From Alphaproteobacteria bacterium (GTDB lineage: Bacteria > Pseudomonadota > Alphaproteobacteria > RF32 > CAG-239), in contig JAFSUB010000001.1 of assembly GCA_017445475.1 (NCBI GenBank), forward strand, positions 14,834 through 78,833: a stretch of 64,000 bases of DNA, written 5' to 3'. This document shows, in pieces, positions 31,279 through 54,806 of this stretch. Both the position numbers and the translations under genes were made by a program. The notes under the pieces were generated by a model, which saw nothing but the letters and a program-made list of their open reading frames with translations, had not been told where the DNA came from and made no database searches. Numbering within the stretch: the stretch's first letter is position 1; each line of letters starts with the position of its first letter.

Positions 31279-31355
31279 CGGGACGTAGTTCAGCCTGGTA
31301 GAGCGCTTGCATGGGGTGCAAGAAGCCGGAGGTTCAAATCCTCTCGTCCCGACCA
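31279..31355 (+). tRNA. tRNA-Pro (anticodon GGG)
   Basis: Cloverleaf: acceptor CGGGACG/CGTCCCG, U8, D-arm GTTC..GAGC, anticodon stem CTTGC/GCAAG, loop AUGGGGU, T-arm GGAGGTTCAAATCCTCT, discriminator A plus encoded CCA; CGG..CGACCA ends typical of bacterial tRNA-Pro. Confidence 0.85.
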
Positions 31356-33842: not shown

Positions 33843-34463
33843 ATGGGTTTTGAAAAGAAAAGCAACCAAAACGGTCGAACCATTGTCGAGCTGATTGCGT
33901 ATATCGTTGTGATGGTTGCGATAACGGCGTCGGTTGCGCAAATTGTTGCGCAAGGATTGCATAAATATGAAAGCAGTGCCGTTTTGCAACAGCTTCTTGA
34001 TTTGAAAAAGGTTATTGCGGCGCGTTATGCGGCCGACGGAAACTATCAAAATCTTTCATGGAATGATTTGTGCGCAGACAGAATCGGCCCGAAATCTTTA
34101 ATGCCCGAAACGGATGATTCAACCGGAGAATGCGCCGCCCAACATGGCCGCCACATTTTTGACGGAATCGTTCGTATCGGCTCTGCCGACGTCGGAAAAA
34201 CCTATTACATCGAATTTCAAGAATTGCCTCAAGACGTTTGCGTGCAGCTTGGAACAATTGTTTGGAGCAATATGGACGGTTCTGATTTAGACCGTATGAT
34301 TATCGGGCAAGGCGCAAGTTTGCAAAATCCGAAAACGTGGGTTTGGCAATATTCACCTGTGTCCGAAGCAGACGGCGACAAAGAGCTTCCGGCAAACATC
34401 AGAGATGTTGCTGATTCGTGCACAAGCGAAGATGACAACACCATAAGGTGGTATTTCAACTAA
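33843..34463 (+). CDS. type IV pilin-like protein (prepilin-type N-terminus)
   Basis: Short basic leader ending in G, then RTIVELIAYIVVMVAI with Glu at mature position +5 (class III signal-peptide architecture); Cys pair near C-terminus. Confidence 0.6.
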   Translation: MGFEKKSNQNGRTIVELIAYIVVMVAITASVAQIVAQGLHKYESSAVLQQLLDLKKVIAARYAADGNYQNLSWNDLCADRIGPKSLMPETDDSTGECAAQHGRHIFDGIVRIGSADVGKTYYIEFQELPQDVCVQLGTIVWSNMDGSDLDRMIIGQGASLQNPKTWVWQYSPVSEADGDKELPANIRDVADSCTSEDDNTIRWYFN

Positions 34464-37025: not shown

Positions 37026-37271
37026 TCAGTTGGAACGGCAATCATTTTTTCTTTCGTCAACAAGCCTTATTTCGATGGATTTGTGGAAATATTTCAAAGC
37101 CTCTTCAAAATTTATCCAGCCGACGCGATCTAAGCCGAGCTCAAGTCTTTCATACATGGCGGGACTTGTTTTAAGCGCCCTTGAGCAGGCGGCCATGCTT
37201 GTGTTGTTTCTTCGGCGCTCTTCAAAAAGAATACGGCCGAGCATTTTTTTGATTTGTTTTTGAATTGTCAT
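37026..37271 (-). CDS. small XRE-like HTH protein (cassette copy A)
   Basis: 81 aa; shares near-identical first ~70 aa with the ORF at 54204..54437; HTH-like LGRILFEERRRNNTSMAACSRALKTSPAMYERLELG. Confidence 0.6.
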   Translation of the reverse strand: MTIQKQIKKMLGRILFEERRRNNTSMAACSRALKTSPAMYERLELGLDRVGWINFEEALKYFHKSIEIRLVDERKNDCRSN

Positions 37272-37299
37272 AAGTAACTCCTGTTTTGTTCATGTTTCT

Positions 37300-37500
37300 A
37301 AAAAAAAACCGTTTTGAAAAAATCTCAAAACGGGGAGCTAACAAACTGTTACAGCACAGATGAGCTTATTCGCGCAAAGCCTTATATCGCCCACTCCCCA
37401 ATGTGGAGTTAACTGTAAGATGTTTGTTAAACACCGCAACCAATCGGTTGCAACGCTATTATGGGAAGATTTTTCTTAAATGTAAAGCAAAAATTTGAAG
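37300..37500 (-). ncRNA. conserved structured leader/sRNA candidate ending in intrinsic terminator (copy A)
   Basis: ~200 nt conserved with 54470..54660; hairpins ACTCC-N7-GGAGT and GCAACC-AATC-GGTTGC (copy B has compensatory GCAATC-AACC-GATTGC); minus-strand terminator CCGTTTTGA...TCAAAACGG plus 9 U, 29 nt before the XRE start. Confidence 0.35.
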
Positions 37501-37547
37501 ATGCTCTGATTTTTGCTTTGCAACAAAAGCATAACGGTTGTTGTGCA
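37497..37547. repeat. dispersed ~50-bp repeat (left flank of cargo A)
   Basis: GAAGATGCTCTGATTTTTGCTTTGCAACAAAAGCATAACGGTTGTTG recurs at 39030..39080; related copies at 54674..54711 and 57462..57493. Confidence 0.5.
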
Positions 37548-37635
37548 GATGCCTATGTGTTCACTCTTGCAGATGCAAATTAAGTTTTCTTAAAAAAAAG
37601 AATCCGTATGCCTTAAAAAGTATGCGGATTCTTCT

Positions 37636-38835
37636 TTATATCAGCAGCCAATCCAAAACATTTATTTGTTTAATTCCGTTGTGCGATGTAACGGGGATCG
37701 GATCCATTGTCAGTAAATATTTCGGATTATGGTCATTAATCAGTTGCAGAGGTCTTAATTCGCGTTCCAATACATTTTGTTCAACGGCCGTCCATGCAAC
37801 CTGATAATGTTCAACATCAGTTCCTTGCAAGGCCGTAAAATCAACCTCGTATTCACCGACTTTACCCACAAACACTTTATATCCGCGGCGTATCAGTTCA
37901 AGAAACACAATATTTTCCAAAATATGGCCGTAATCTCGGCTTGTTTGTCCGACAAGCAAATTTCTTAAAGCTATGTCGGCGATATAATATTTTTCACCGG
38001 TTTTCAAATATTCTTTACCCTTAATATCATAGCGAGGGACAGAATATAGAAAATAACAATCTTTAAGCGATGAAATATAACTATCTACCGTGTGTGTGGA
38101 TATGTCCTGACCGTCAGATGACATTGTATCGGCAATTTTTTTAATGGAAACCAAATTACCGATGTTGTCGCTCATAAATTTTGCAACGCGTTTTAAGGCT
38201 GAAGTGTCCGTCAAGCCTCGTCTGTCCGCAATATCTTTAACAATAATTGTGTTGTAAAGGGCATCCAAATAACCTGAAATGTTTTTTGAATCGCCGTTGA
38301 GTAATAACGTAAAAGGAAATGAACTGTCCGTTATATATTTTTGAAACAAATCCGACTTGCTTAAATTTTCAAAAGCTTGACGATATTCTTTGAGGGAAAA
38401 AGGTTGCATTCCGATTTCTATATAACGGCCGGAAAGCAACGTTGCCAGCTCTCCCGAGAGCAAATAAGAATTAGACCCCGTTAAATATAAGTCAACATTT
38501 TTTTTAACAAACAATGCGTCCACGGTTTTTTGAAAATCCGGAACATATTGAATTTCATCTAAGAGGACATAATTCATCTTGTCTGCAATAAGGCGTTCTT
38601 TGATATGTTGATACAATTTTTTATGATTCGTTAAATCTTGATATTTTTCGTCCTCAGATTCTTCAAAATTTATGCGAATGATTTGGTTTTGCTCGACACC
38701 GCTGTTAAGCAAATATGCCTCAAACAAATCAAAAAGGGTTGATTTTCCCGAGCGGCGAATGCCGGTTATAATTTTAATAATGGGTTTGTTTTTAAGGCTT
38801 ATCAGCCTGTCAATATATTCTTGGCGCTTTATCAT
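37636..38835 (-). CDS. AAA+ ATPase of the DUF4143 (AAA_14) family
   Basis: Walker A GIRRSGKST, Walker B VLLDEIQ, C-terminal DUF4143-like region; flanked by direct repeats. Confidence 0.75.
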   Translation of the reverse strand: MIKRQEYIDRLISLKNKPIIKIITGIRRSGKSTLFDLFEAYLLNSGVEQNQIIRINFEESEDEKYQDLTNHKKLYQHIKERLIADKMNYVLLDEIQYVPDFQKTVDALFVKKNVDLYLTGSNSYLLSGELATLLSGRYIEIGMQPFSLKEYRQAFENLSKSDLFQKYITDSSFPFTLLLNGDSKNISGYLDALYNTIIVKDIADRRGLTDTSALKRVAKFMSDNIGNLVSIKKIADTMSSDGQDISTHTVDSYISSLKDCYFLYSVPRYDIKGKEYLKTGEKYYIADIALRNLLVGQTSRDYGHILENIVFLELIRRGYKVFVGKVGEYEVDFTALQGTDVEHYQVAWTAVEQNVLERELRPLQLINDHNPKYLLTMDPIPVTSHNGIKQINVLDWLLI

Positions 38836-54203: not shown

Positions 54204-54437
54204 TTATTTTTGTTTTAGCTCGTCAACAAGCCTTATTTCGATGGATTTATGGAAATACTTCAAGGCCTCTTCAAACTTTTTCCAGCCGACGCGATCTAAG
54301 CCGAGCTCAATTCTTTCATAGGTGATGGGTTTTATTTTAAGCGCCTTGCAGCAGGCGGCGGTGTATGTGTTGTTTCTTTGGCGCTCTTCAAAAAGAATAC
54401 GGCCGAGCATTTTTTTAATTTGTTTTTGAATCGTCAT
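54204..54437 (-). CDS. small XRE-like HTH protein (cassette copy B)
   Basis: 77 aa, paralog of 37026..37271 (MTIQKQIKKMLGRILFEER...); C-terminus diverges at the junction with the core gene. Confidence 0.6.
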   Translation of the reverse strand: MTIQKQIKKMLGRILFEERQRNNTYTAACCKALKIKPITYERIELGLDRVGWKKFEEALKYFHKSIEIRLVDELKQK

Positions 54438-54469: not shown

Positions 54470-54660
54470 AAAAAAAACCGTTTTGGAAAAAAATCTCAAA
54501 ACGGGGAGCTCAAAAACTGTCCTAATACAGATTTCCTTATTCGCGCAAAGCCTTATTTCGGAAACTCCCCAATGCGGAGTTGAAATTAGGAAGATGTTTT
54601 TGAAACACCGCAATCAACCGATTGCAAGGTTATTATGGAAGATTTTGAAGAAATGTAAAG
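54470..54660 (-). ncRNA. conserved structured leader/sRNA candidate ending in intrinsic terminator (copy B)
   Basis: Same element as 37300..37500: AACTCC-N7-GGAGTT hairpin, GCAATC-AACC-GATTGC hairpin, terminator CCGTTTTGG...CAAAACGG plus U-run just upstream of the XRE start. Confidence 0.35.
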
Positions 54661-54673
54661 AAAAAAAATTGAA

Positions 54674-54711
54674 GATGCCTTGAAGTTTTTGAGCGCGCTC
54701 AAAAAATAGGC
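54674..54711. repeat. dispersed repeat (left flank of cargo B)
   Basis: GATGCCTTGAAGTTTT (16/16 with 57478..57493), palindrome GAGCGCGCTC, then GGCATGACGGGTT; second partial copy GCCATGACGGGTTGTG at 54758..54773. Confidence 0.45.
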
Positions 54712-54806
54712 ATGACGGGTTTTATAGATGTTTTGAATTTTTCGCTTAAGCGAAAAACAGCCATGACGGGTTGTGCTGTTTTTTCTCCATTCCGAACGAA
54801 AACAAA

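Follow-up and report, generated by a model that had tools for sequence, protein, structure and literature searches.

The window analyzed here, a stretch of 64,000 nucleotides (nt) from an Alphaproteobacteria bacterium (GenBank assembly GCA_017445475.1, contig JAFSUB010000001.1, positions 14,834 to 78,833 of the forward strand), contains, on its minus strand, a structured RNA in two copies, at positions 37300-37457 (copy A) and 54470-54631 (copy B), and we think it probable that both sites are cis-acting, riboswitch-like attenuators that belong to a new RNA family. This assignment draws on the fold and its covariation, the promoter and terminator layout, the multicopy distribution, the variety of genes behind the RNA, and a set of conserved alternative complementarities, all of them read from sequence. 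In both copies, a sigma70-like promoter is followed by a noncoding RNA of ∼150 nt, an intrinsic terminator, a spacer with a Shine-Dalgarno (SD) sequence, and a small open reading frame (ORF). A preliminary description of this DNA had reported conserved minus-strand hairpins and a strong terminator upstream of two genes for XRE proteins. All of these hairpins are present; beyond what had been described, they belong to one larger fold, and a conserved promoter (TTTACA-N16/17-CATAAT) lies directly upstream of it. The parts of the two modules are as follows.

37486..37458, minus strand: copy A promoter, with the -35 box TTTACA at 37486..37481, a 17-nt spacer, and the -10 box CATAAT at 37463..37458 (consensus scan, 10 of 12 matches).
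37300..37457, minus strand: copy A structured RNA, with the covariance-model match at 37457..37302 (R1, 190 bits; R2, 155 bits with filters off) and a predicted transcript of ∼37451..37300.
37333..37300, minus strand: copy A intrinsic terminator, a stem-loop at 37333..37309 followed by U9 at 37308..37300 (scan: 11 pairs, of which 9 are uninterrupted Watson-Crick pairs), 28 nt before the ATG.
37272..37299, minus strand: copy A spacer (28 nt), with an A-rich tract and the SD sequence AGGAG at 37282..37278.
37026..37271, minus strand: copy A small ORF of 81 amino acids, with its ATG at 37271, predicted to encode an XRE-fold helix-turn-helix (HTH) protein.
54632..54659, minus strand: copy B promoter, TTTACA-N16-CATAAT (consensus scan).
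54470..54631, minus strand: copy B structured RNA, terminator included (R1, 153 bits; R2, 144 bits), with a minimum free energy (MFE) fold of the same architecture.
54504..54470, minus strand: copy B terminator, a hairpin at 54504..54478 followed by U8 at 54477..54470, 32 nt before the ATG at 54437 (covariance-model alignment).
54204..54437, minus strand: copy B small ORF of 77 amino acids, encoding a paralogue of the copy A protein (81% identity).

The terminator of copy A thus has the nine-pair stem and nine U residues that had been described for it. The consensus terminator scan passed over copy B, whose stem is bulged, and it was the covariance model that aligned that hairpin. The window holds exactly two covariance-model matches, even with filters off; the core pattern occurs twice in it (0.00 expected), as does an exact 19-mer of the P5 region (0.04 expected).

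MFE folding gave −49.4 kcal/mol with a z value of −3.85 for copy A and a z value of −2.57 for copy B, with one architecture in both. The fold begins with a 5′-terminal hairpin (P1) and continues with a long stem (P2-P3), broken by a small conserved internal loop, that leads to a three-way junction carrying P4 and P5/P5a; the terminator abuts the 3′ strand of P2. In copy A, the elements are the following.

37436..37451, minus strand: P1, the 5′-terminal hairpin GCAACC-GAUU-GGUUGC; 6 of 6 pairs covary in the family, and 98 to 100% of cells are paired.
37422..37435, minus strand: 5′ strand of P2, GGUGUUUAACAAAC; double changes in 10 or 11 of the 13 P2 pairs.
37412..37418, minus strand: 5′ strand of P3, UUACAGU, pairing with 37355..37349; 7 of 7 pairs with compensatory changes.
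37393..37409, minus strand: P4, the hairpin ACUCC-ACAUUGG-GGAGU, with GGGGAG (G2) at 37399..37394; invariant in the family.
37362..37392, minus strand: P5, the stem GGGC/GCUC enclosing the GAUAUAAG / CGAAUAA loop and P5a (GC-UUU-GC); all P5/P5a pairs covary.
37349..37355, minus strand: 3′ strand of P3, GCUGUAA, with conserved flanks CUG (37359..37357) and CAGUU.
37334..37346, minus strand: 3′ strand of P2, GUUUGUUAGCUCC, from the MFE fold and family covariation.

P1, P2, P3, and P5 each differ between the two window copies by compensatory changes. P1 reads GCAACC-GATT-GGTTGC (37451..37436) in copy A and GCAATC-GGTT-GATTGC in copy B, which is a true exchange of C-G for U-A, as had been noticed earlier with the loops quoted from a plus-strand reading. 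P3 is UUACAGU/GCUGUAA in copy A and UCCUAAU/AUUAGGA in copy B, and the P5 stem is GGGC/GCUC and UUCC/GGAA, respectively. The ACTCC-N7-GGAGT hairpin of the preliminary description is P4, found at 37409..37393 in copy A and beginning at 54580 in copy B. The internal loop of P5 (GAnAUAAG/CGAAUAA) is conserved and pseudo-symmetric, the P5a hairpin is small and variable, and the loop sequence of P1 is not conserved.

A protein search, which came first, returned just six close relatives, all from metagenome-assembled Alphaproteobacteria, and on their contigs each genome has four or more paralogous modules, which lie in unrelated contexts and have the same upstream RNA. Homologues were then gathered by DNA pattern and covariance model. 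In a species-representative genome collection, the core DNA pattern matched 82 stretches, ∼79 of them real, and nearly all of the real matches came from uncultured gut or rumen Alphaproteobacteria, whose hosts are human, deer, rabbit, and others. The covariance model was built from a hand-annotated seed, which replaced a MAFFT alignment of 8 copies in which P3 was misaligned and was then missed by RNAalifold; the model identified 100 copies in 34 species-level assemblies. For a second set, metagenomes were searched with another pattern, in which the 5′ strand of P4 was optional, and at least ∼105 further copies were obtained; among the 120 metagenome loci listed, ∼25 were chance or CRISPR-repeat matches. 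Altogether, the family comprises at least ∼200 copies in at least 34 species-level genomes plus metagenomes, with up to 11 copies per genome. Two scans of viral contigs contained no real copy, and a phage origin is not supported.

The check proposed at the outset, folding both copies and testing for covariation in more homologues, gave the shared architecture described above and two large sets that covary (39 to 40 of 46 pairs). In the first set, 94.5% of the cells were in standard pairs, compared with 41 to 47% when the partners were slid, and 39 of 46 pairs had changed on both sides; there were 944 double-change cells, compared with 117 to 182 in the slid controls, and none of 500 shuffles attained the observed values. 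The metagenome set had 94.0% paired cells, 40 of 46 pairs with compensatory changes, and 910 double-change cells, with slid controls over both sets at 36 to 47% paired. Covariation is absent from P4 and from the first five pairs of P2 and present in every other helix, including the terminator stem (9 of 9 modeled pairs). G-U and U-G cells outnumber A-C and C-A cells by 289 to 85, indicating that the pairing takes place on this RNA strand and is not that of a DNA palindrome. This asymmetry bears on a DNA-level explanation, in which the inverted repeats would be palindromic operators for a dimeric XRE protein and would covary symmetrically as well. The genes do encode HTH proteins of the dimer type, and a 16-bp palindrome, P1, follows closely downstream of the -10 box, but the nested helices, with the terminator among them, extend over more than 100 nt, the element lies downstream of the promoter, and the sequence of P1 does not follow the recognition helix, all of which makes operators an extremely improbable account of the conservation. 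The narrower idea that P1 is a paralogue-specific operator was rejected, as the same P1 occurs with different proteins.

In 89 homologous copies, a promoter with the consensus cTTGCAAAAt-N17-TaAtat ends exactly at position 1 of the model, so that the transcript would begin at about the base of P1. The preliminary description had considered, as an alternative, a small RNA (sRNA) derived from the 3′ untranslated region of a cargo operon; this is not supported, given the element's own promoter in 89 copies, the unrelated genes upstream, and the presence of a separate terminator behind the gene upstream of copy A. In most complete copies, the SD sequence and ATG come within ∼20 to 35 nt after the terminator. 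Inspection of the sequences between terminator and SD revealed no conserved promoter, so we infer that the ORF is expressed by read-through of the terminator. The spacer before the SD holds an exact complement of at least 5 nt of the U tract in most ORF-linked copies. In 41 copies, this complement carries a C where the tract has a matching G interruption, and in 13 of 19 it carries a G where the tract has a matching C interruption (UUUUGUUUU:AAACAAAA versus UUUCUUUU:AAGAAA). If the two pair, the resulting helix (P7) would be a conserved structure in the read-through transcript, and the complementarity argues that RNA and ORF work as one unit. Nearly all predicted folds of the read-through transcript pair CUCC with the SD; this pairing comprises only 4 to 5 bp and competes with P2, and we keep it as a weak idea only.

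Some copies are orphans, with their own promoter and terminator and an intact structure but no ORF; they form tandem arrays of 2 to 3 units and are conserved across several species. Nearly all arrays finish with an SD-ORF at a fixed short distance. Three-unit arrays occur in L139, L160, and L073, where RNA genes with a promoter and a terminator apiece follow one another at ∼220 to 260 nt. The three RNA copies of L188 lie at intervals of ∼510 nt, which leaves room for the RNA and a small ORF. Two RNA genes of the CALXTR genome (L023 458-842 and L082 ∼3675-3837) are split after CAGUU by the same ∼240-nt insertion, and the 3′ end of the RNA resumes downstream of it.

Orphan copies would be expected of a stand-alone trans-acting sRNA gene, in which the terminated RNA of ∼150 nt would be the functional product, acting by pairing with ribosome-binding sites through CUCC/GGAG or by titrating a protein, and the ORF would be cotranscribed at a fixed ratio by leaky read-through. 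The element's own strong promoter and strong terminator also fit such a gene, and so does its start with a 5′-terminal hairpin, which is typical of stable RNAs; AACUCC and CUCCCC resemble anti-SD sequences and are complementary to the family SD GGAGUU. The CUCC and GGAG elements are, however, paired in the stable fold, and a sRNA gene would explain neither the SD-ORF that ends nearly all arrays at a short fixed distance, with the U-tract complement in its spacer, nor the leader position that the RNA always keeps before varied downstream genes. A GC-rich relative without a terminator, described below, would give no discrete small RNA at all. We regard a trans-acting sRNA as rather unlikely. It is not exclusive of the attenuator we propose, and terminated riboswitch RNAs can act in trans, as Listeria SreA does.

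The XRE label attached to the downstream genes in the preliminary description holds for the window proteins at the fold and family level, from profile and structure comparisons, and it was not matched by Pfam, which returned no hit for either of them. An iterative profile started from the copy A protein recruited 62 of 64 different ORFs behind the RNA, some of which pass Pfam HTH_3 or HTH_31. The AlphaFold model of the copy A protein has a predicted local distance difference test score (pLDDT) of 81.6, and its top Foldseek matches in the PDB were C.BclI, HipB, ClgR, and SinR (probability 1.00; template modeling [TM] score, 0.6-0.69); as modeled, the protein is an XRE protein in fold and family. 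The small proteins are extremely divergent, above all in the recognition helix, and have in common fold-determining residues and a C-terminal K...I.L.D strand. An exhaustive protein profile search was swamped by noise resembling tetratricopeptide repeats. The four-to-five-helix HTH fold of the small proteins and their size are those of restriction-modification C proteins, HipB, and Cro-like repressors; unlike for C proteins and HipB, no partner toxin or restriction-modification genes were seen near the window copies or the relatives' loci examined. We know of no C protein, HipB, or Cro-like repressor with a conserved structured leader RNA.

The same RNA also stands in front of genes of other classes. 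These encode BspA-type LRR_5 secreted proteins (confirmed by Pfam at L168, L119, L136, L189, and L091 and recognized by sequence at L165 and L177), an outer-membrane beta-barrel protein (L186), a protein with a prepilin-like N terminus (L150; not confirmed by Pfam), and a canonical HTH_3 regulator of 160 amino acids (L112). Behind the RNA in these loci come the terminator and then the SD, with a spacer of ∼22 to 40 nt that extends to ∼100 nt in L177. The leucine-rich-repeat (LRR) proteins of the five Pfam-confirmed loci have a common C-terminal motif, K(R/K)IYT(I/V)(D/E)EA..V....N...I.YR, which may be a sorting or anchoring signal.

A GC-rich relative (59% GC; L108 520-775, from Ga0209643_1005839) matched at 42.6 bits. 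It keeps P2, P3, P4, P5, and P5a, adds two hairpins, and has no U-tract terminator; instead, a CCCUCCA segment is complementary to the SD UGGAGGG, and its 3′ end can pair as a putative SD-sequestering expression platform in place of a terminator. The gene downstream encodes a non-XRE protein with a signal like that of the twin-arginine translocation pathway (Tat), genes for ParB_N and a DnaG-type primase adjoin, and the RNA is probably located on a mobile element.

We compared the orthologous RNAs of related strains (L006 1637-1794 and L011 2801-2969) with window copies A and B. Across the two loci, the flanks are 99 to 100% and the ORFs 94 to 95% identical. At the locus orthologous to copy B, identity is 99.8% in the flanking gene and 94% in the ORF but no more than 77% in the RNA, whose new stems are intact. 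At the one orthologous to copy A, the RNA is 94% identical and, in the relative, chimeric, having a 5′ half of the copy B type and two broken P2 pairs. RNA segments appear to have been exchanged between paralogues by gene conversion. Since the RNA has been swapped while the ORF stayed, an RNA need not match its ORF; this swapping, together with an RNA core that is far better conserved than the proteins, suggests that the RNA serves a common function and not a paralogue-specific one.

These findings also bear on an XRE-specific role, in which the HTH protein would bind its own leader for autoregulation or the two would form a ribonucleoprotein or a pair like that of type III toxin-antitoxin systems. 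RNA and XRE ORF are tightly linked in most copies, and the pseudo-symmetric internal loop would suit a dimer. Type III toxin-antitoxin loci (ToxIN, CptIN, and TenpIN) consist of a promoter, a noncoding RNA, a Rho-independent terminator that is expected to give an excess of RNA over mRNA, and a protein gene, which is the order of elements seen here. The RNA described here, however, is a single complex fold and not a series of tandem 34-to-36-nt repeats (Tandem Repeats Finder detected no repeat inside it), and the protein has an XRE DNA-binding fold and not the fold of a ToxN/AbiQ-type endoribonuclease. PADLOC had no match for the small proteins, which share almost only their fold-determining residues next to an invariant RNA core; RNA variants have moved between paralogues without the ORF, identical P1 hairpins accompany different protein types, and LRR, outer-membrane, pilin-like, and other genes also follow this RNA. 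On these grounds, a partnership confined to the XRE proteins is very unlikely.

The attenuator that we favor would require the leader to adopt a second conformation, and two alternative pairings are conserved. Their partners in copy A, apart from the segments listed above, are as follows.

37423..37419, minus strand: ACAUC, the 3′ partner in Alt-1 and complement of G1.
37337..37332, minus strand: CUCCCC (C2), spanning the end of P2 and the first two C residues of the terminator.

In Alt-1, the first five nucleotides of P2 (G1; GGUGU or GGAGU) are complementary to ACAUC or ACUCC located 8 to 19 nt downstream, and Alt-1 and P2 are mutually exclusive. This complementarity was found in 85 of 90 copies (22 expected) and in 67 of 72 (10 expected), with the compensatory variants GGUGU:ACAUC, GGAGU:ACUCC, GGUGC:GCAUC, and GAUGU:ACGUC. 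For the second pairing, of GGGGAG (G2) with CUCCCC (C2), 59 of 62 metagenome copies show full complementarity. In 67 of 90 and 59 of 72 copies, the best complement to the 5′ arm of the terminator also lies in the 3′ strand of P4, and it is the sole consistent one. Together, the conserved alternative pairings and the invariant segments with dual partners suggest a switch. A conformer with Alt-1 and GGGGAG:CUCCCC exceeds the MFE by 6.2 kcal/mol in copy A and by 9.1 kcal/mol on average, so that it would need kinetic or factor assistance.

We propose that each site is a self-contained module, in which a constitutive-looking sigma70 promoter would drive the leader and the regulator gene would be expressed by read-through alone. 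In the default OFF fold, the 5′ strand of P2 (G1, GGUGU) would be paired with the 3′ strand (C2, CUCC) and P4 formed from AACUCC and GGGGAG; the full terminator would then stand beside P2, transcription would end, and a stable RNA of ∼150 nt would be set free. In the alternative fold, G1 would be sequestered with ACAUC in the local Alt-1 hairpin, and GGGGAG:CUCCCC would strip two basal C-G pairs from the terminator beside the U tract, which would favor read-through. The balance would be set by a common signal that acts on the three-way junction and the symmetric internal loop; possible candidates are small molecules, second messengers, and a protein shared by the copies. We infer that the RNA adopts the alternative fold in vivo, that this fold reduces termination, and that it is controlled by a ligand. 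The riboswitch, attenuator, or cis-regulatory leader suggested in the preliminary description is borne out as regards the RNA and the terminator and stays conditional as regards regulated read-through itself. The cis-regulatory reading gains from the occurrence of the same RNA before other gene classes, from the different platform in one relative, and from the conserved alternative pairings.

Several points weigh against it. The proposed antiterminator overlaps the terminator by 2 nt only and is thermodynamically weaker than the default fold, and Alt-1 could merely be an intermediate of cotranscriptional folding. The orphan array copies without an ORF would be easier to explain if the terminated RNA were functional in itself, and the case of a different platform comes from a single divergent sequence (L108, 42.6 bits). 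Conservation reaches at least 97% in AACUCC, GGGGAG, GA.AUAAG, CGAAUAA, CUG, and CUCCCC, loop nucleotides included, and this invariance is in part ascertainment, since the retrieval patterns demanded GGGGAG and the loop motif; P4 was also invariant in the set gathered without a requirement for its 5′ strand. Alignments fitted to a model inflate the counts of paired cells somewhat, and this cannot account for so wide a gap to the slid controls.

The stability of the default fold, which is much greater than that of any alternative, would also agree with a constitutive leader without sensing, whose terminator would set a low, fixed level of read-through and whose folded RNA would be a 5′ stabilizer or insulator of weakly expressed genes. 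The terminator is compatible with P2, so that competition between them is not obligatory. Such a leader would, however, have no need for a three-way junction and a loop with unpaired nucleotides conserved to at least 97% over at least 34 species-level genomes, and it leaves unexplained both the invariant P4 amid drifting helices and the conserved alternative complementarities. We consider it unlikely.

The attenuator has in common with terminating riboswitches a multistem fold, conserved junction and loop nucleotides, a 5′ leader position, a terminator platform, and several copies per genome. Among the features of a riboswitch class, it has an aptamer-like fold backed by covariation and, in several gene contexts, occupies the 5′ leader on the strand of the gene. 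It differs from riboswitches in that most copies precede tiny, hyperdivergent XRE regulators, which is unusual, and in the candidate antiterminator, which overlaps the terminator by just those 2 nt. By gene context, the nearest known systems are the cyclic di-GMP (c-di-GMP)-I and -II (GEMM) riboswitches. GEMM regulons include regulator, pilin-like, and surface or adhesin-like genes, and genes of these kinds are found here too; the resemblance is a lead and not a test. In sequence and structure, the RNA matches neither the c-di-GMP-I/II riboswitches nor any other Rfam 15 family. Tentatively, it may be a new riboswitch class, possibly for a nucleotide second messenger or a host-gut signal, that gates diversified XRE factors along with adhesin-like LRR, outer-membrane, and pilin-like proteins.

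At gathering thresholds, an Rfam 15 search of the whole window detected a tRNA only (31279-31352, plus strand). With a permissive E value, the best match in 37200-37700 scored 23 bits, compared with a gathering score of 57, and in 17 homologous loci Rfam 15 matched nothing at the RNA sites. Our literature searches returned no description of the RNA. In a survey of human microbiomes, HTH_XRE was the commonest domain immediately downstream of the candidates for structured RNAs (15 candidates) (Fremin and Bhatt 2021, PMC8040213). Those candidates come from human-gut data, where the present RNA also occurs, and the ones upstream of HTH_XRE are given there without name, structure, or function. The core motif had no match in 200 of its 408 supplement files, a comparison that takes in a part of the survey's 3161 candidates. 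Within that scope, the RNA apparently represents a family of structured RNAs, of the leader or attenuator kind, that has not been described before.

The family adds a well-supported RNA with a complex fold, at least ∼200 copies, and exceptionally clear covariation to a lineage without cultured members or known RNA regulators. A sensing RNA before up to 11 divergent transcription factors per genome would, if true, be an unusual design that distributes one input over many DNA-binding outputs. The association of the RNA with surface proteins hints that gut commensals might use it to control how they interact with hosts or surfaces. With the fold, the alignment, and the covariance model in hand, ligand screening and checks against metatranscriptomes are directly possible.

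The two sites in the window had been described as copies of a cassette. Their similarity runs from ∼35 nt upstream of the -35 box to the stop codon, and comparison of the sites revealed no repeated cassette beyond the RNA module and small ORF, so that only ∼0.45 kb (promoter, RNA, and ORF) is common to both. The flanking genes are unrelated between the copies and have housekeeping functions: copy A is surrounded by an AAA_14/DUF4143 ATPase gene, yacG, the RNase G gene, maf, and dksA, and copy B by a class-II aminoacyl-tRNA-synthetase-like gene and rlmE. The ATPase gene upstream of copy A (37636-38835, minus strand) corresponds over its full length to the PADLOC candidate defense family PDC-S01 (E value of 2.8e-148).

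Most palindromes upstream of family promoters are terminators of the upstream genes, and a family-wide comparison of that region turned up no consistent palindromic operator. In the window, the module promoter is preceded by a unit of ∼50 nt that consists of AACC(C)GTCATGCC, T5-6, a GC-rich palindrome, A5, and TCAArGCATCTTCAA; it is single at copy A (37495-37540, minus strand), present as two tandem units at copy B (54669-54774, minus strand), and not family-wide. Its palindrome core seems to follow the recognition helix in a few relatives (GCGAAGC or TTGCAAAGCAA with TSPAMY and GAGCGCGCTC with IKPITY), and the palindrome is a possible candidate operator. A type IV pilin-like gene with PilS/Bundlin domains lies 3 kb from copy A on the plus strand (33843-34463), without the RNA in front of it.

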